In this document: piece after piece, positions 29,822-35,459 of the stretch
How the letters are laid out: the number at the start of each line of letters is the position of its first letter
How positions within the stretch are numbered: the first letter of the stretch is position 1
DNA from: Chitinophagaceae bacterium
GTDB taxonomy: Bacteria > Bacteroidota > Bacteroidia > Chitinophagales > Chitinophagaceae
Direction: 5' to 3'
Assembly (NCBI GenBank): GCA_044227095.1
Contig: JBGAFV010000001.1
Coordinates: forward strand, 1,625,127 to 1,689,126
DNA: 64,000 nucleotides
Notes under the pieces: generated by a model
What the model was told of the DNA's origin: nothing
The model's input: the letters and a program-made list of their open reading frames with translations, nothing else
Databases searched by the model: none
Translations under genes and position numbers: made by a program

Positions 29822-31267
29822 TTATTCACCTTCCACTGCATTTTTTTCTTTCTTCCATGATCTGTGTTTGGCGCCATCCATCTTTACAATTTTTGGCGTA
29901 AACCTTCCTACAATGTCTACCAAGGATTTCTGAGATTGCATTACTACTTCAATATCCTTGTACGCAAAAGGCGATTCGTCTAATCCGCCACCAAGCAGTT
30001 TTACACCAAACTTTTTCAGTTCGTCTTTAAACTGTTTATCTGTTACAGATGCAATGGCACGTGTACGGCTCATTTTTCTTCCTGCACCATGCGATGCAGA
30101 ATTTACAGATGCAGCCTCTCCTTTACCTTTTACAATAAAACCATCTGCCGTCATAGAACCAGGTATAATACCTAATACATCTTTGCCTGCAGGTGTAGCA
30201 CCTTTACGATGAACAATCACATCACGCCCTTCCCATTTTTCTTTCCACGCAAAGTTGTGGTGGTTTTCTACCATCTTCATTGCTTTACGCCCTAATTGTT
30301 TGGCTATCTTGGCATGTATTACATGATGACATGCAGAAGCGTAATCACCCGCAAGGTTCATCGCATTCCAGTATTCTATACCTTCTTCTTCATCTAAACT
30401 TAACCATGCAAGGTTTTTTGCTTCTTGTGGTAAACGTCTTTTGCTAATAGCCAACTTTGTATAGTGGTTAGCAATGTTTGCACCCAATGCCCTGGAACCA
30501 GAATGCGTTAGAAAACCAACATACTTTCCTGCACTAATACCAAGCATTGCATCTTTTTCTGCCACTTCAATAATACCAAACTCAGCAAAGTGGTTACCAG
30601 AACCAGAAGAACCCAATTGTTTCCATACACGGCCATGCATTTTCTTAAGCAATGGCAATTGGTAAAACAGTTCATTGTCCATCACTTCATGATCAGCTGC
30701 TCTATCAAACTGCGCACCGCTTCCAAATAATGTGGCTTCACTTAATTCTCTCGCAAAAAATGCTTCCTTGTCTGTAAGATCTTTTGGGTTGATATCAAAA
30801 ATACTTAAACACATTCTGCAACCAATATCCACGCCTACTCCATAAGGAATAACCGAGTTCTCTGTCGCCAGCACTCCACCTATCGGTAATCCATAGCCGC
30901 TGTGGGCGTCTGGCATTAATGCACCGGCTATACTCACGGGAAGTTTTGCTGCCTGGTACATCTGGTGCATAGCGCCTTCTTCAATATGTTCCTGCCCAAA
31001 TACATTAAACTGTATACCGTTTTGGTTCAGCGATATTTCTGCACCCTCTGTTGCAGCCTTAGGTATTAATTGCTGCGCAATCAAACCCAGCACAGCATCA
31101 TTTTCATATTCTACCGGCGCAGCCAGTATTTTTTTTAATAGTTCCATCACTTCTTCTTTTCCACTGTGTTTATAATTCTTTTCCATCACATTCATAGCAA
31201 TGCTTACTACCGGTCCTTCCGGGAAGCCAATTGCCCTGATTTCTTTTCCTGATATTTTTAGTTTCAT
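29822..31267 (-). CDS. rtcB: RNA-splicing ligase RtcB (3'-phosphate/5'-OH RNA ligase)
   Basis: Full-length 481 aa. Metal and GTP-binding motifs PDAHSGYG, GSGNHF, NHHNFAW, SHGAGR and the catalytic His region are present. Confidence 0.9.
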   Translation of the reverse strand: MKLKISGKEIRAIGFPEGPVVSIAMNVMEKNYKHSGKEEVMELLKKILAAPVEYENDAVLGLIAQQLIPKAATEGAEISLNQNGIQFNVFGQEHIEEGAMHQMYQAAKLPVSIAGALMPDAHSGYGLPIGGVLATENSVIPYGVGVDIGCRMCLSIFDINPKDLTDKEAFFARELSEATLFGSGAQFDRAADHEVMDNELFYQLPLLKKMHGRVWKQLGSSGSGNHFAEFGIIEVAEKDAMLGISAGKYVGFLTHSGSRALGANIANHYTKLAISKRRLPQEAKNLAWLSLDEEEGIEYWNAMNLAGDYASACHHVIHAKIAKQLGRKAMKMVENHHNFAWKEKWEGRDVIVHRKGATPAGKDVLGIIPGSMTADGFIVKGKGEAASVNSASHGAGRKMSRTRAIASVTDKQFKDELKKFGVKLLGGGLDESPFAYKDIEVVMQSQKSLVDIVGRFTPKIVKMDGAKHRSWKKEKNAVEGE

Positions 31268-31447: not shown

Positions 31448-32554
31448 TTAACCATTCTTATTTGCCGGTACAAAGATCTGCTTCAACTGTTCTACCAAAG
31501 CACCGTTGCCACTTACACTGATATTACTGATTTTATCTGCAATCTTCTCTACGTATTCCATCTCTTTCAATTTCCACAACATCGCATTTTCTTCCATCAA
31601 TTTAGCAGTGTTTAGCAAACTACGGGTGCTGGCTGTTTCTTCACGGCGCATGATTGTATTTGCCTGCGCTTTCTTTTCTGCAATCAATACCTGGTTCATA
31701 ATCTCTTTCACATCGCCCGGCAAAATAATATCGCGTATACCAAAGCCGGTTACTTCCACACCCAATGCTGCAGCTTCGGCTTTTGCCCGCTGCAATATAT
31801 AAGGTGCGATGGTTTCTTTTTTTTCCAGCAATTCATCAAAGCTGAAACCGGCAATGTATTCACGCAAAGCCAATTGAAAGGCTACATACAATTGCTTGTC
31901 ATAGTCTTTGTTTTGCAACAAAGCTTTTTCAATGTCAGCCACTTTGTATTGCGCCCATGCATTAATACGCAAAGCCGCTTTGTCTTTGGTCAGGATTTCC
32001 TGGCCGTTTACTTCCAGTTGCTGCTGACGGATATCAACTTTGCCTACATGAATAGCGATGCTGTTCTTCCACCATGTATAAATGCCACTTTGCAAGGTTT
32101 GCACATACTTACCGTCTACAAACAATAGTGCTTTTTCATAACTCTCTACACTATAAGTACGCACATAGCCAATTACAGGCCGGCTCAACAAAACAGTGCG
32201 ATCAATGTTTTCAGTGATCTCAATCTTACTGATGTCTGCATGTACAAATTGGTAGTCAATCATTCCCTTCCAATATGTATAACGGCCGGCATTCAATACT
32301 AGCTTCAGCAAACCATTTTCGTATTGCAAAACAATTTCATTGTCTTTTACATCCACTACATGCAATGCATCAGCCAGCATAGTATCTTGCAAAAGAATAT
32401 TCAGTTCTATAGGAGCAACAAATGGTTTATTCAAGTCATAAACGATGGCTGTTTCATTCCACAACCAGTATTTACCTTCTTTCAGCATTCGCTGATAAGT
32501 TCCATTCTTAAACACCAAACCAACCTGGTAGGCATTTACTTTTACCTGTTTCAT
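31448..32554 (-). CDS. SPFH/band-7 (slipin/prohibitin-like) domain protein
   Basis: Band-7 core ...GFGIRDIILPGDVKEIMNQVLIAEKKAQANTIMRREE... plus an N-terminal extension. The start is at MKQVKV. Confidence 0.7.
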   Translation of the reverse strand: MKQVKVNAYQVGLVFKNGTYQRMLKEGKYWLWNETAIVYDLNKPFVAPIELNILLQDTMLADALHVVDVKDNEIVLQYENGLLKLVLNAGRYTYWKGMIDYQFVHADISKIEITENIDRTVLLSRPVIGYVRTYSVESYEKALLFVDGKYVQTLQSGIYTWWKNSIAIHVGKVDIRQQQLEVNGQEILTKDKAALRINAWAQYKVADIEKALLQNKDYDKQLYVAFQLALREYIAGFSFDELLEKKETIAPYILQRAKAEAAALGVEVTGFGIRDIILPGDVKEIMNQVLIAEKKAQANTIMRREETASTRSLLNTAKLMEENAMLWKLKEMEYVEKIADKISNISVSGNGALVEQLKQIFVPANKNG

Positions 32555-32937
32555 TTTCTTATATTTAAAGTTTTCAATTATTTGTAAAAAAGTCAGCACT
32601 GCCTGCACTCCGTAATCACGGAAGCGGGTTTTAGAAAATGTTTTTTGTAACAGTTTACCAGGGAGTGTTCGCCTGATAAAGTGAAACGAGCTGCATTCCT
32701 GCTGCCAGCCTGCAGATGCTTACTGAGTTGCACACTTCCAAAACTTTCCCTGTCAAAAAAGGTACTCGTTCTTTCAAGTCTTTCTTGCTGCATTGATGCA
32801 GCAAAAAAGAGTCATAGGCCGTGTGCCCGCAGGCAGCACCAACTTTTTTTATCTGGTCACCTTTTTTAAGAAGCGGTGGACTTCTCCTTTTGAAGCATTA
32901 TCAGTGCTTTGCTAGACCATTTAGCTTCACCGCCAAA

Positions 32938-33052
32938 GGCGATGACAGGATTCGAACCTGCATATTTCTGTTGCTCTACCACTGAGCTATTCCGTTTGCA
33001 ACGGAAAGAGGAATTGAACCCCTGACCCACAGGTTATGGAGGGCATTGCACC
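32938..33052 (-). ncRNA. candidate tRNA-mimic ncRNA (YrlA/Y-RNA-like tRNA-like module) upstream of the SPFH-rtcB genes
   Basis: The minus strand reads ...AGGGG-TTCAATT-CCTCT (T-arm) TTCCGTT-GCA-AACGGAA (acceptor-like 7-bp stem closed by a 3-nt loop) TA-GCTC-AGTGGTAGA-GAGC (D-arm with G18G19)... The ends GGTGCAATG / CATCGCC can pair. There is no anticodon arm. A second T-arm-like hairpin CAGG-TTCGAAT-CCTG lies near the 3' end. Confidence 0.45.
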
Positions 33053-33230
33053 ATTGAAATAACAGCATACAGAAAGTTTACTAACTCTGCACTATGGTGT
33101 TTTTGAAACACACATCCGGTTTACTGTCAACAGGCAGTTGCCCTTCTTGCCGTTAAGCAAGCTTTTGTGTTGAACTAGTCAACAATTTATTTATCTAAAG
33201 AATTTTCGGAGCATTGTATTATGGAAGAAG

Positions 33231-33962
33231 TTAATCATCCAGCCTATCCAAAATCTGCGGTAGCGGAATATTGTACAATGGATTTCTTTCCCTGTCTCTT
33301 TGTTCCCTGTAGCGCCATTTGTAACTATCACCTAAAATTTTAGCCTGACGTGCGTCATACTTATTCCATTCAAGGTAATTGCTAATTTCTTCGAGGCGTT
33401 TTTCAATGTCCACATCTTTTATCTTGATTTTATCAATTATGTTTGGACTTACACGCAATACAAAACGCCAGGGCTCATTAAAGACATATCTTTTAACCGG
33501 TTGCTTTTTCCAGTCATGCTCCCAAACCTCATGAAAACATTGCATTTCGCTATCAGAAAAGGCAAACCTTTTAAGCTCATATGAATATGGCTTTAGCAAC
33601 TGCTGCCCTTTAATAACATAGATCTTCCTTCCATACTTTCTTTTCCTGATGCGGAAGTCTTTTCTGTAACTCCAGGCGCTGGTATTTATTTTTTTCAAAA
33701 TAGCCTCAAAGAACTCTGCCTGTTTGCTTCTTGCTACGTCATCACGTAAAACAAAACAACGTTTCCATCCTTTTTGTACAGGTGGCAATAAGGGTTCCCA
33801 ACCTAAATTATTTTTTCTTGCCCACAACCCACGTTGTTCTTTCCATAATTGAATCAACTGTTTATCAAAATCTTTATACTGCATTCTTTTTTTCTGCCTG
33901 GCAGTACGCAGGCGGTAGCAGAGAATATCTTCTCCGTGCTGTTGAATAAGTTTTGTGTCCAT
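33231..33962 (-). CDS. hypothetical basic protein (243 aa, R/K-rich), no recognisable domain
   Basis: Clean ORF and ATG start. Its 5' UTR contains a D-arm-like hairpin GGTGCAATGGCACC (33990-34010). Confidence 0.5.
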   Translation of the reverse strand: MDTKLIQQHGEDILCYRLRTARQKKRMQYKDFDKQLIQLWKEQRGLWARKNNLGWEPLLPPVQKGWKRCFVLRDDVARSKQAEFFEAILKKINTSAWSYRKDFRIRKRKYGRKIYVIKGQQLLKPYSYELKRFAFSDSEMQCFHEVWEHDWKKQPVKRYVFNEPWRFVLRVSPNIIDKIKIKDVDIEKRLEEISNYLEWNKYDARQAKILGDSYKWRYREQRDRERNPLYNIPLPQILDRLDD

Positions 33963-34102: not shown

Positions 34103-34588
34103 TCACTGCACCACTTTATTAGCACAGCTAGAACTTGCAAATGCTTCTGGCTTGGCTTTAAAAGCAAAACCCATCCCCATTATATAACCCATCGCTTCTT
34201 TCAAAGCATCATTGCTTTTAAAATTTGGATTGGTGTTGATATCGGCATGTACTTCCATTTCTACATCATATAAAGTGAATAGCCTGCACAATTCATAGGC
34301 AATGTCAATACTCTTCGATACTTCCAGCAACATCCTTTGCTTTATGCTCATCTTCTGTTGCGTAACTTCATTGCTGATATACATGAAACCACCTTTTCCT
34401 TTTCTTATAAAAACAATTACGGTTGCAAATTCTGTTTCCCGCCCTTTAACCTGGCTATCGGTACCAATACATACTTTCAAATCATTGCCCAATTGTTTTT
34501 CACGAACAATAGCCGAACGCACTTCATCAACAATAGATTGCTGCAACCTTTGTCCGTTCAGTTTTCTCCATTTTTGTTGCTGTTCCAT
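34103..34588 (-). CDS. YkuK/DUF458-family RNase H-like protein
   Basis: IGTDSQVKGRETEFATVIVF...NTNPNFKSNDAL resembles the DUF458 predicted RNase-H-fold nuclease. The start is at MEQQQKW, and the longer upstream extension overlaps tRNA-Phe. Confidence 0.5.
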   Translation of the reverse strand: MEQQQKWRKLNGQRLQQSIVDEVRSAIVREKQLGNDLKVCIGTDSQVKGRETEFATVIVFIRKGKGGFMYISNEVTQQKMSIKQRMLLEVSKSIDIAYELCRLFTLYDVEMEVHADINTNPNFKSNDALKEAMGYIMGMGFAFKAKPEAFASSSCANKVVQ

Positions 34589-34604
34589 TGTTTTGTTTTT
34601 AATG

Positions 34605-34679
34605 TGGTGCCTTAAGGAATCGAACCTTAATTGCTGGTTCTTCAAACCAGTGCAATAGAACCATCTCTGCCAAAGCACC
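34605..34679 (-). tRNA. tRNA-Phe (GAA)
   Basis: Manual fold: acceptor GGTGCTT/AGGCACC, D-arm GCAG...TTGC, anticodon stem CTGGT/ACCAG with loop TTGAAGA, T-arm TAAGG-TTCGATT-CCTTA, discriminator A. Confidence 0.7.
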
Positions 34680-34684
34680 ATTTT

Positions 34685-34776
34685 GTCTGAACCAGGATTT
34701 TGAAGGATTTTTTGGATTAATAGGATGTACACTTCTCTGCTAAATCTTTTAAATCATTTTAAATCCTGGTTTAGAT
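34685..34776. repeat. ~95-bp palindromic unit immediately 5' of tRNA-Phe (family also at 35110-35204, 35465-35637, 13040-13080)
   Basis: Terminal inverted repeats GTCTGAACCAGGATTTTGAAGGATTT ... AAATCCTGGTTTAGAT. Confidence 0.6.
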
Positions 34777-34876
34777 TTTTTTTGTTATTAACTGTAGTAA
34801 CACTATTAAGCATCGTTGCGTCGCACACTTCAGCTTTTTGTTATTTATTCATCATATCTCCCAATATAGTCTTCTT

Positions 34877-34948
34877 GCGGATGAAGAAAGGTTCGAACTT
34901 TCAACCTGGGGCTTAACAAGCCACTGCTCTGCCATTGAGCTATTCATC
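34877..34948 (-). tRNA. tRNA-Asn (GTT)
   Basis: Manual fold: acceptor GGATGAA/TTCATCC, D-arm GCTC-AATGGCA-GAGC, anticodon loop TTGTTAA (one mismatch in the anticodon stem), T-arm GAAAG-TTCGAAC-CTTTC, discriminator G. Confidence 0.6.
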
Positions 34949-34951
34949 CAT

Positions 34952-35025
34952 GAGTCGCGCAGAAGATTCGAACTTCTTTATTCCGGTTTGCAGCCGGATG
35001 CATACAGCCATGTCTGCCAGCGCGA
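34952..35025 (-). tRNA. tRNA-Cys (GCA), unusual D-arm
   Basis: Acceptor GTCGCGC/GCGCGAC, anticodon stem TCCGG/CCGGA with loop CTGCAAA, T-arm AGAAG-TTCGAAT-CTTCT, discriminator T. The D-region is 21 nt with a non-canonical stem. Confidence 0.55.
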
Positions 35026-35033
35026 CTTTTATT

Positions 35034-35109
35034 GTTGGCCCGGTGAGACTCGAACTCACAACTCCCGGTGTAAAAGACCGGTACTCTGCATCCAATTGAG
35101 TTACGAACC
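35034..35109 (-). tRNA. tRNA-Lys (TTT)
   Basis: Acceptor TGGTTCG/CGGGCCA (two G-U pairs), D-arm ACTC...GAGT, anticodon stem CCGGT/ACCGG with loop CTTTTAC, T-arm GTGAG-TTCGAGT-CTCAC, discriminator A. Confidence 0.65.
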
Positions 35110-35204
35110 AGTGTCTGAACCAGGATTTTGAAGGATTTTTCAGATTAATAAGATGTAAATTTTTCTGACGAATCTTTTTAATCCTTTTAAATCCTGGTTC
35201 AGAT
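35110..35204. repeat. ~95-bp palindromic unit immediately 5' of tRNA-Lys
   Basis: GTGTCTGAACCAGGATTTTGAAGGATTT ... AAATCCTGGTTCAGAT. It is ~85% identical to the 34685-34776 unit. Confidence 0.6.
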
Positions 35205-35211
35205 ATTTTTT

Positions 35212-35306
35212 GTACGACTTTCAGAATCGAACTGAATACGCCAAACTTATGTTTACCTCTCAGAAAGAGCAGGAAGCTTAGCATGTTGCCATTACACCCA
35301 GCCGTA
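35212..35306 (-). ncRNA. 95-nt tRNA-like element with canonical acceptor, D-arm and T-arm but no anticodon stem-loop (tRNA pseudogene or tRNA-mimic RNA)
   Basis: Acceptor TACGGCT/AGTCGTA, D-arm GTGT-AATGGCA-ACAT, T-arm TTCAG-TTCGATT-CTGAA. The 46-nt internal segment contains no 5-bp/7-nt-loop anticodon arm in any register (checked manually). Confidence 0.4.
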
Positions 35307-35309
35307 TTG

Positions 35310-35381
35310 GTTGACTTCGGGACTTGAACCCTGTTCTTCACATTCACAGTGTGACACTTTACCAGTTAAGCTAAAGCCAAC
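35310..35381 (-). tRNA. tRNA-His (GTG)-like, with G-1:C73 and irregular T-arm
   Basis: G-1 + TTGGCTT / AAGTCAA + C73 gives the 8-bp His-type acceptor. D-arm GCTT-AACTGGTA-AAGT, anticodon stem TCACA/TGTGA with loop CTGTGAA. The T-stem has only 3-4 bp (GGG-TTCAAGT-CCC). Confidence 0.5.
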
Positions 35382-35386
35382 GTTTG

Positions 35387-35459
35387 TTGTTAAGGATAGA
35401 TTCGAACTATCATCATCAGTGTCAAAGACTGATATGCTGAGCCATTGCACCACTTAACA
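35387..35459 (-). tRNA. tRNA-Gln (TTG)
   Basis: U1-A72 acceptor TGTTAAG/CTTAACA, D-arm GTGC-AATGGCTCA-GCAT, anticodon stem TCAGT/ACTGA with loop CTTTGAC, T-arm GATAG-TTCGAAT-CTATC. Confidence 0.7.

Follow-up and report, generated by a model that had tools for sequence, protein, structure and literature searches.

A putative tRNA-mimic RNA with a circularly permuted module encoded upstream of slipin genes in Chitinophagaceae

Introduction

Bacterial RtcB-type repair islands contain tRNA-like RNAs, YrlA and a predicted Band-7-associated RNA. The defining features of YrlA RNAs are a tRNA-like domain, a terminal stem that binds Ro and carries the motif GNCGAAN0-1G, and proximity to rsr, within ~4 kb (PMC4201824). 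As summarized in 10.1101/312249, YrlA is occasionally adjacent to Band-7 genes, and a second RNA, the tRNA associated with band 7 (b7a-tRNA), was predicted by Burroughs and Aravind in 2016 to lie beside Band-7 genes in RtcB systems and was never validated; the same summary characterizes it as “strongly resembling an authentic tRNA.” We describe a conserved RNA encoded on the minus strand upstream of a slipin (Band-7/SPFH) gene in a 64,000-nt stretch of DNA from a Chitinophagaceae bacterium (the whole stretch is denoted the window; coordinates are window positions unless a locus label is given). Judging from its pattern of covariation, this RNA is predicted to be a genuine non-coding tRNA mimic rather than a tRNA gene.

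Results

Extent and architecture of the RNA

The comparison was based on 80 slipin-anchored loci from different Chitinophagaceae species (slipin protein identity 73-83%). Carriers that can be cultivated include Lacibacter sediminis, Terrimonas sp., Niastella sp., and Longitalea arenae. A ~210-nt region around the element that a first-pass annotation had flagged at 32938-33052 was identified by nhmmer in nearly all of these loci, and its position upstream of slipin was the same. Alignment of the relatives showed that conservation reaches ~115 nt further 5' than this element and that the additional sequence forms a hairpin and a long interrupted stem around two more hairpins. RNAalifold analysis of the relatives' alignment (denoted A1) yielded seven covarying helices rather than three (T-arm 1, closed acceptor 1, D-arm 1, T-arm 2 CAGG-UUCGAAU-CCUG, closed acceptor 2, D-arm 2, and an anticodon-like arm), followed by a conserved hairpin. 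The flagged stretch corresponds to the middle part (module 1) of an RNA of ~310 nt, from ~33161 to 32858 on the minus strand, that consists of five parts in the 5' to 3' direction: a three-way-junction domain, module 1, module 2, a hairpin, and an H-type pseudoknot that uses the hairpin loop. The features are listed below with the fraction of alignment cells that are paired and the number of pairs with double changes.

33146..33161, minus strand: P1 hairpin, CUUGCU-UAAC-GGCAAG (helix 1; 92.6% of cells paired, double changes at 5 of 6 pairs)
33040..33144, minus strand: 5' domain, P2 stem enclosing P3 and P4 (helices 2-6; 81-99% paired, double changes at 26 of 39 pairs)
33144-33116 with 33065-33040, minus strand: P2, a long interrupted stem that encloses P3 and P4
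33115-33094, minus strand: P3 hairpin, inside P2
33067-33092, minus strand: P4 hairpin, stem GUGCAG/CUGUAU, inside P2
33033..33039, minus strand: single-stranded joint of the CCNCCA type, connecting the 5' domain to module 1 (C29, C32, and A34 at least 90% conserved in A1)
32968..33032, minus strand: module 1 (helices 7-10; 89-100% paired, double changes at 16 of 19 pairs)
32962..32967, minus strand: inter-module linker, used by module 2 as its variable loop; the final linker nucleotide and nucleotide 15 of the D2-loop covary
32893..32961, minus strand: module 2 (helices 11-14; 88-100% paired, double changes at 17 of 19 pairs)
32858..32885, minus strand: H-type pseudoknot, consisting of the hairpin AGAAGU-CCACC-GCUUCU (32885-32869; helix 15), an A-rich linker, and GGUG (32861-32858) paired with the loop CACC (32878-32875)

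The complete structure, 93 pairs in 16 helices, was evaluated on A2, an alignment of 59 sequences spanning the entire RNA; with a mean column identity of 62%, these sequences are not near-identical. The proposed pairs are formed in 90.7% of the cells, compared with 76.8% after column shuffling (none of 500 shuffles reached the observed value) and 36-47% when the partners were slid by 1-3 columns. Both sides changed at 70 of the 93 pairs, and the covariation score was 0.451 versus 0.07-0.11 with slid partners. A sequence-by-sequence check of the pseudoknot found 4-5 bp at the expected position in ~55 of the 59 sequences, the loop CACC[G] pairing with [U]GGUG, with the compensatory variants CAGCG/UGCUG, CAUCG/UGAUG, CGCCG/UGGCG, GGCCG/UGGCC, and UGCCA/UGGCA. 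The succession of T-arm, closed acceptor, and D-arm is kept with many compensatory changes in more than 100 Chitinophagaceae sequences. Minimum free energy folding of the window RNA as a single sequence was uninformative and partly misleading (z = -0.7 and -1.2).

The first-pass annotation had allowed for a tRNA-gene fossil at this position. In its fuller form, this explanation would make the RNA a functionless remnant of decaying tandem tRNA genes belonging to the adjacent array. Tandem tRNAs are a known source of false YrlA matches, an artifact of which Chen et al. warn (PMC4201824); moreover, the arms of the RNA are like ordinary tRNA arms, and the consensus of the AC2 hairpin of module 2 resembles tRNA-Ile(GAU). 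A covariance model of module 2 together with the hairpin (R1) also gives weak scores of 15-38 bits to tandem-tRNA junctions, but the members of the family score far higher, at 59-122 bits (97.8 bits for the window RNA), so that the model separates the RNA family cleanly from tandem tRNAs. ARAGORN predicted six tRNAs in the window, none of them at the RNA, where an Rfam search at gathering thresholds likewise detected no family. Furthermore, in more than 100 sequences, which come from many genera, pairings not found in any tRNA, in particular those between acceptor strands across the modules, are preserved by compensatory changes, along with a non-tRNA 5' domain and the pseudoknot. The covariation that keeps these non-tRNA pairings contradicts the fossil explanation, which we consider almost certainly wrong.

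Module 1 and its partial similarity to YrlA

On the minus strand, module 1 reads GGUC AGGGG-UUCAAUU-CCUCU UUCCGUU-GCA-AACGGAA UA GCUC-AGUGGUA-GAGC A ACAG. The previously described T-arm AGGGG-TTCAATT-CCTCT and perfect 7-bp stem TTCCGTT-GCA-AACGGAA were located at 33023-33007 and 33006-32990, respectively. The TA (32989-32988) and the D-arm (32987-32973) that had been placed after them also exist, with a correction to the D-loop: the actual arm is GCTC-AGTGGTA-GAGC, and the earlier reading, AGTGGTAGA-GAGC, had GA doubled. The remainder of the module consists of helix P5, CUGU/ACAG (33032-33029 with 32971-32968), a 5-nt variable loop, and A26 at 32972. These arms are conserved beyond chance, the T-arm, closed acceptor, and D-arm staying paired through double changes in the 59 aligned relatives. 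The UA junction (U8A9) is present in all 59 sequences, as are A14 and A21, and the T-loop is the canonical UUCRANU. The chain leaves the tRNA body via the anticodon stem, of which CUGU/ACAG is the 4-bp equivalent, as in YrlA.

The pairings that had been proposed outside this core fared differently. Among the segments flanking the module, the inner CTGT/ACAG covaries (with CAAC/GTTG and CAGC/GCTG variants), whereas CATA/TATG is unsupported, and the outer long stem made of GGTGCAATG/CATCGCC plus CATA/TATG is paired in 45.6% of the cells compared with 45.8% in shuffles. These segments have other partners: GGTGCAATG is part of the 3' strand of P2; GGUGCAAUGCCC is the 3' strand of the long stem in the 5' domain; GGTGCAATGCCC pairs with the upstream AGGGCAAC...TG rather than in the outer stem; and CATCGCC, pairing with the downstream GGCGGTG, is the 5' strand of the second closed acceptor. 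Comparison with related Chitinophagaceae, suggested at first pass as a check, therefore backs the closed acceptor, T-arm, and D-arm but not the long terminal stem, and the self-contained ~115-nt Y RNA envisaged there gives way to a unit three times larger, the terminal stem being missing in relatives. The distance to the SPFH gene also required revision, from ~180 nt to 384 nt between the 3' end of the flagged element (32938) and the slipin ATG at 32554.

Assignment to the YrlA class holds for the core topology of module 1 (T-arm, loop-closed acceptor, and D-arm, without an anticodon loop) and not for the RNA as a whole. In a search of 800 nt (32600-33400), the Rfam YrlA model (RF02553) aligned over its full length at 33054-32936, including the AAUGC and CUGUC segments, with 40.2 bits (E=2.7e-7). 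YrlA is the sole Rfam family to match the core; its gathering threshold of 69 bits is not reached here or in any of 8 relatives. The motif GNCGAAN0-1G occurs in 7 of the 59 sequences, compared with a chance expectation of 8.7, and never in a terminal stem, which itself is not conserved. As the first-pass annotation anticipated, the RtcB/SPFH context comes without Ro: no TROVE match was found among the 15 window open reading frames scanned (including 11 of the 14 of at least 400 aa), and no recurrent TROVE family was detected within 8 kb of slipin in the 80 loci. Because of the sub-threshold score, the lack of a Ro-binding terminal stem or motif, and the lack of rsr nearby, membership in YrlA fails; by these sequence criteria, the RNA appears to resemble YrlA in part and is not a member of that class. 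It is accordingly highly improbable that this is a true YrlA Y RNA binding a Ro60/Rsr protein encoded elsewhere in the genome.

Module 2, a permuted tRNA shape

Module 2 consists, on the minus strand, of a T-arm (32961-32945), the closed acceptor CAUCGCC-UUU-GGCGGUG (32944-32928), AA (32927-32926), a D-arm (32925-32911), A (32910), and the anticodon-like arm AAGCA-CUGAUAA-UGCUU (32909-32893). The order of these elements (T-arm, 3' acceptor strand, loop, 5' acceptor strand, D-arm, and anticodon arm) is that of permuted tRNA halves. Nucleotide 15 of the D2-loop and the nucleotide just 5' of T-arm 2 form G-C in 28, A-U in 27, G-U in 3, and G-G in 1 of the 59 sequences, corresponding to the R15:Y48 Levitt pair. 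Because this covariation spans the permutation point, module 2 can be expected to fold as a tRNA L-shape in which the inter-module linker acts as the variable loop. Module 2 is thus a complete tRNA shape circularly permuted at the variable loop. Its A14 is present in 58 of the 59 sequences, its T-loop, like that of module 1, is UUCRANU, and both modules have GG in the consensus D-loops.

The acceptor stems of the two modules are mostly 7 bp, and their loops are 2-17 nt long, unconserved, often GNRA-like, and never CCA in the 59 sequences. The acceptor ends are closed by short loops, and therefore no 3' end is available there for charging unless the loop is cut. The modules thus look like deliberately closed tRNA mimics, presumably not chargeable without such a cut. 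The anticodon-like loop of module 2 is 7 nt long in 57 of the 59 sequences, mostly C32 U33 NNN R37 A38, with a triplet that is not conserved (~35 different triplets among the 59 sequences).

The Rfam tRNA model (RF00005) produced two partial matches in 32600-33400, with 33.1 and 27.5 bits. The better of these, a “T-armless tRNA-Ile” at 32934-32871 in which the T-arm is skipped, was rejected: its 3' acceptor strand is the pseudoknot hairpin, and the pairing does not covary. Among the relatives, the acceptor of such a contiguous cloverleaf, GGCGGTG/CACCGCT, is paired in 48.5% of the cells compared with 48.4% in shuffles, the partner of GGCGGTG being the upstream CATCGCC.

A permuted or split tRNA precursor, the acceptor loop of which would be opened by RNase P and CCA addition and which RtcB would join at the variable loop to give a working tRNA, would account for the presence in module 2 of every tRNA arm in permuted order with a mostly 7-bp acceptor, and for the RtcB gene nearby; moreover, the YrlA of M. 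smegmatis, with its 7-bp stem, is cut by RNase P and gains CCA (PMC4201824). However, there is no stable tRNA identity because neither the anticodon triplet nor the acceptor sequence is conserved, many of the acceptor loops are only 2-4 nt long, no bulge-helix-bulge-like motif was seen by eye in module 2, and one natural variant (L011, see below) dispenses with the T, acceptor, and D arms of this module. A precursor role thus appears very unlikely.

The same features bear on the possibility that the RNA is a decoy or sponge, whose non-chargeable tRNA shapes would absorb tRNA-targeting toxins (anticodon nucleases) and spare the tRNAs, with the neighboring tRNA array alongside. Both modules hold the tRNA tertiary signature (U8, A14, G18G19, R15:Y48, and the T-loop), and the exposed anticodon loop of module 2, with its triplet changing freely across species, is what an arms race predicts. 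There are earlier proposals that YrlA acts by competitive inhibition (PMC7790460) and that array tRNAs serve as a sponge (PMC8421152). Nevertheless, one to three modules per transcript make a small sink compared with the cellular tRNA pool, the invariant 5' domain, the pseudoknot, and the strict link to slipin would be left unexplained, and the L011 variant lacks most of module 2. We consider this function rather improbable.

The 5' domain, flanking sequences, and natural variants

The 5' domain holds the near-invariant GUGCAG...CUGUAUGCUGUU. Conservation within the RNA is highest, above that of the tRNA-like arms, in the P4 hairpin, which has two invariant G-U pairs and a (G)UAGUAAC loop that is nearly invariant. 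To judge by this pattern, P4 looks like a specific recognition site. For the CCNCCA-type joint that follows the domain, no supported pairing partner was found; a weak long-range CCA/UGG pairing suggested by RNAalifold was dropped because the pseudoknot explains the data better. The RNA core is flanked by two further features:

33169..33183, minus strand: P0 hairpin, GTTGA-CTAGT-TCAAC, immediately preceding the conserved core on its 5' side; most relatives also have a hairpin there, with differing sequences
32555..32857, minus strand: spacer or leader that separates the slipin start codon from the RNA core, partly conserved, with a window-specific insertion

Counterparts of P0 in relatives, identified by inspection, include GTTGATG..CATCAAC, CCCC..GGGG, and GCCAGAC..GTCTGGC. 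This hairpin could cap the RNA at its 5' end or, alternatively, be where the transcript of the upstream gene ends. The spacer is 247-556 nt long, with a median of 282 nt (65 loci). The spacers of relatives have conserved patches (AAAGCCGGGU..., ACCNGGUAAUUACCNGCAGGC, and GCUUCCGU) and recurrent pairing potential, and the spacer may form a further structured domain. The insertion special to the window is ~64 nt long and contains a 14-bp hairpin at 32810-32779. The 200 nt immediately preceding the slipin ATG showed no convincing covariation.

The number of modules among the relatives ranges from one to three. Two T-loops were counted in 95, and one in 18, of the 113 complete RNAs. Three modules are present in L029 (2960-3265), and L067 (770-945) combines the 5' domain and the pseudoknot with a single permuted module. 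In L074 (7470-7640), L076, and L081, a plain, anticodon-arm-like hairpin, GCUGU-CUGAAAA-ACAGC, takes the place of module 1. In L011 (7480-7690), module 1 is kept, and module 2 is reduced to the AC2 hairpin, without the T, acceptor, and D arms. Every variant retains the 5' domain, the AC2 hairpin, and the pseudoknot, together with one or more T/acceptor/D units.

Linkage to slipin and gene neighborhood

In 79 of the 80 loci, R1 gave exactly one match of at least 59 bits, in every case at a distance of 270-400 nt on the 5' side of slipin; the sole negative locus lacks upstream DNA. An independent metagenome sample was anchored only on the RNA motif of the 5' domain (120 loci, 84 of them fitting the family hidden Markov model). 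Downstream DNA of 700 nt or more is available on 52 metagenome contigs, and all 52 have a slipin gene on the same strand, at a median gap of 287 nt. Over both samples, the RNA lies 250-560 nt upstream of slipin. Other neighbors are less constant: among the 80 loci, RtcB is encoded within 8 kb of slipin in 55, a PF04308 gene is present in 52, in most cases immediately 5' of the RNA, an AAA ATPase gene in 43, between the PF04308 gene and the RNA, an RlaP nucleotidyltransferase gene in ~30, and genes for a radical-SAM protein, DUF5131, and a 2'-5' ligase/2H phosphoesterase in 20, 12, and 11, respectively. Examples of additional repair-type genes around the RNA are found at L057 5997-7241, L045 9168-9974, L068 11145-12224, and L062 386-1024. 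Because slipin is constant and the other neighbors are less so, the obligate partner of the RNA is slipin, not RtcB. Arrays of 2-17 tRNA genes lie 5' of the RNA in 25 of the 33 relatives examined in this respect; carriers include L004, L006, L008, L025, L039, and L054. The island in the window includes the following genes and lacks those for the AAA ATPase, RlaP, 2H, radical-SAM, and DUF5131 proteins:

31448..32554, minus strand: slipin/SPFH (Band-7) gene, 368 aa (Pfam Band_7, 8.5e-31; stomatin-like by PDB sequence search)
29822..31267, minus strand: RtcB RNA ligase gene (Pfam RtcB, 4.7e-80)
33231..33962, minus strand: 243-aa basic open reading frame, flanked by the PF04308 gene and the RNA (without a match in Pfam, NCBIfam, PHROG, or PADLOC)
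34103..34588, minus strand: PF04308 RNase H-like (DUF458) gene, 161 aa (Pfam, 1.7e-37)
34604..35459, minus strand: six tRNA genes, Gln, His, Lys, Cys, Asn, and Phe (ARAGORN and Rfam; the Rfam scores are modest, 50-65 bits)

A protein identical to the slipin is on record, with the start MKQ. No hydrophobic segment is evident in it by eye, and its AlphaFold model, built from a shallow alignment (predicted local distance difference test, pLDDT, of 55), is too poor for use. Sequence searches with the PF04308 protein found no relative with a solved structure. The 243-aa open reading frame seems to be a mobile or accessory insert because it is present in only ~10 of the 80 relatives, at varying positions. 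PADLOC, NCBIfam, and PHROGs searches with four island proteins returned only RtcB and SPFH names.

The strict linkage raises the question of whether the RNA acts in cis, as a leader or damage sensor, with the modules forming part of the 5' untranslated region of the slipin(-rtcB) mRNA and controlling its expression. Variants of this explanation include cutting by anticodon-loop nucleases, RNase P, or the PF04308 protein, and binding of slipin for autoregulation, such that the repair genes are made upon tRNA attack. The RNA is always directly upstream of slipin, co-oriented with it, and within the bounded distance of 247-556 nt. Nothing consistent was found in the relatives when an intrinsic terminator was sought after the pseudoknot. 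The spacer is partly conserved, and in many loci, a short hairpin and U-run occur just before the ATG. In addition, module 2 retains a generic 7-nt anticodon loop, and the slipin island of E. coli (see the next section) has a T-arm/closed-stem element between a sigma-54-like promoter motif and the ATG. However, the RNA tolerates one, two, or three module copies as well as spacer insertions, a degree of freedom seldom expected of an expression platform that is tuned, the modules showed no alternative pairing with the start region, and the YrlA of Salmonella is not cut by a stress-induced anticodon nuclease (PMC7790460). On balance, a cis-acting leader is a credible possibility, though an unlikely one.

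Possible relatives beyond Chitinophagaceae

Slipins with 37-41% identity are encoded in E. coli, Citrobacter, Burkholderia, and Subdoligranulum. The E. coli island, located between yjbD and lysC, encodes slipin, a nucleotidyltransferase, and a zeta-toxin-like protein and is present in 1425 of 5426 complete genomes, without any RNA annotated. Its leader (L322 5684-5878, CP061233.1; also L324) contains the sigma-54-like TGGCACGCTTCTCGCA and, ~190 nt ahead of the ATG, a T-arm with a closed stem of 7 perfect bp directly after it. The ~470-nt leader of the slipin-RtcB locus of the Firmicute Subdoligranulum variabile (L323 5600-5800, OY725857.1) contains two T-arms, a closed acceptor-like stem, and a 3-bp D-like arm as well as two hairpins with a common stem, GCCGC/GCGGC. 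R1 scores these leaders at 20.8 bits (E. coli) and 26.6 bits (Subdoligranulum), within the tandem-tRNA background, and Rfam searches of both gave no match. Because the R1 scores are low and Rfam is empty, cross-phylum homology is only suggested; on the basis of its sequence, the E. coli leader may be a minimal relative in a model organism.

Viral sequences were scanned for a D-arm located too close to a T-arm. This pattern mostly recovered ordinary phage tRNA arrays, along with one unrelated phage contig that has the same tandem layout. In this GC-rich contig (L137 5130-5290, IMGVR_UViG_3300027869_000035; also L183), the order T-arm/closed acceptor/TA/D-arm occurs twice, between the SSB and portal genes. 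R1 gave 45.9 bits, above the tandem-tRNA background; no ARAGORN tRNA, Rfam family, or slipin, RtcB, or TROVE gene was detected on the contig.

Discussion

By analogy with the Ro-Y RNA pair, we propose, with about even confidence for and against, that this RNA is the RNA partner of a slipin-centered tRNA-repair particle, a Band-7 counterpart of that pair. Synthesis of the RNA would accompany or shortly precede that of the slipin mRNA. Its inert, tRNA-shaped modules would serve as handles or substrate mimics and bring tRNA-recognizing repair enzymes together with damaged tRNAs. These enzymes would be RtcB and, in relatives, also RlaP, which rebuilds damaged tRNA 3' ends (PMC12776372), the 2H phosphoesterase, and the AAA ATPase. 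In favor of such a scaffold-like role, the number of modules varies from one to three while the 5' domain, the AC2 hairpin, and the pseudoknot stay, and the acceptor loops are short and unconserved. Precedents are the rsr-yrlBA-rtcBA operon and the prediction of the b7a-tRNA.

Several considerations weigh against this proposal. That the invariant 5' domain would dock on a slipin oligomer is purely our inference. A search of the relatives for the Bacteroidetes TAnnTTTG promoter 5' of P1 found nothing consistent; as neither a conserved promoter ahead of the RNA nor a terminator after the pseudoknot was detected, a discrete transcript is only putative. The strict upstream adjacency fits a cis-acting leader equally well. 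Finally, a scaffold does not explain why the anticodon-like loop is retained.

A further possibility is that the RNA is a cis-encoded, tRNA-shaped bait that reports tRNA damage. Anticodon toxins or the PF04308 nuclease would cut the loop of module 2, parting the 5' part of the transcript from the slipin-rtcB message and turning the repair genes on; RtcB would then reseal the RNA and turn the response off. We consider this a long shot; if true, it would be a self-resetting RNA sensor made from a circularly permuted tRNA, and a quarter of E. coli strains would hold a relative in which it could be tested.

Whichever function applies, the predicted Band-7-associated class gains a concrete, covariation-backed architecture in one large family. 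The slipin-RNA particle is a testable prediction, and the possible relative in the E. coli leader should be easy to approach experimentally.

Permuted and split tRNAs are also known outside bacteria. In the permuted tRNA genes of Cyanidioschyzon merolae and the split tRNAs of Nanoarchaeum, an RtcB-type ligase joins the halves, and real tRNAs of conserved identity are produced via bulge-helix-bulge cleavage and circularization. Module 2 resembles the C. merolae genes in that the 3' part of the tRNA precedes the 5' part; unlike in both these systems, its anticodon and acceptor drift freely, and the loops are too short and variable. As regards particles, the shoulder domain of MVP in the vault has an SPFH-like fold, and TEP1 contains a TROVE domain. 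The Ro60-Y RNA and vault particles share with the arrangement proposed here an oligomeric scaffold protein and a small structured RNA that is encoded next to it or assembled with it, tied to RNA surveillance or repair, with the difference that the slipin-RNA contact is our conjecture and the present system is known from sequence. The long tRNA arrays of Anabaena that are co-regulated with rtcB (PMC8421152) provide another parallel, an extra tRNA array with RtcB in a stress or repair role, but consist of genuine tRNAs and involve neither a tRNA-mimic RNA nor slipin.

The closest similarities are to the two tRNA-like RNAs of RtcB repair islands. YrlA (RF02553; PMC4201824; structure in 10.1101/312249) has, like module 1, a T-arm, a loop-closed acceptor-like stem, UA, and a D-arm, with entry and exit via the position of the anticodon stem, and both RNAs are encoded in RtcB repair islands; here, the partner is slipin instead of Ro, and a 5' domain, a second permuted module, and a pseudoknot bring the RNA to ~310 nt. 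With the b7a-tRNA, the RNA shares its nature as a non-coding tRNA-like RNA next to a Band-7/SPFH gene in RtcB/RlaP repair systems, to the extent that the secondhand description allows comparison. The difference from an RNA said to resemble an authentic tRNA is that no contiguous cloverleaf is present here, all four arms and the tertiary-pair nucleotides occurring in module 2 in permuted order; the brief summary in 10.1101/312249 makes no mention of a 5' domain, tandem or permuted modules, a variable number of modules, or a pseudoknot. The architecture, which Rfam 15 does not include, can best be regarded as a new variant among the tRNA-mimic RNAs of bacterial RNA-repair systems, and compared with that secondhand description, the RNA most likely belongs to the b7a-tRNA class.

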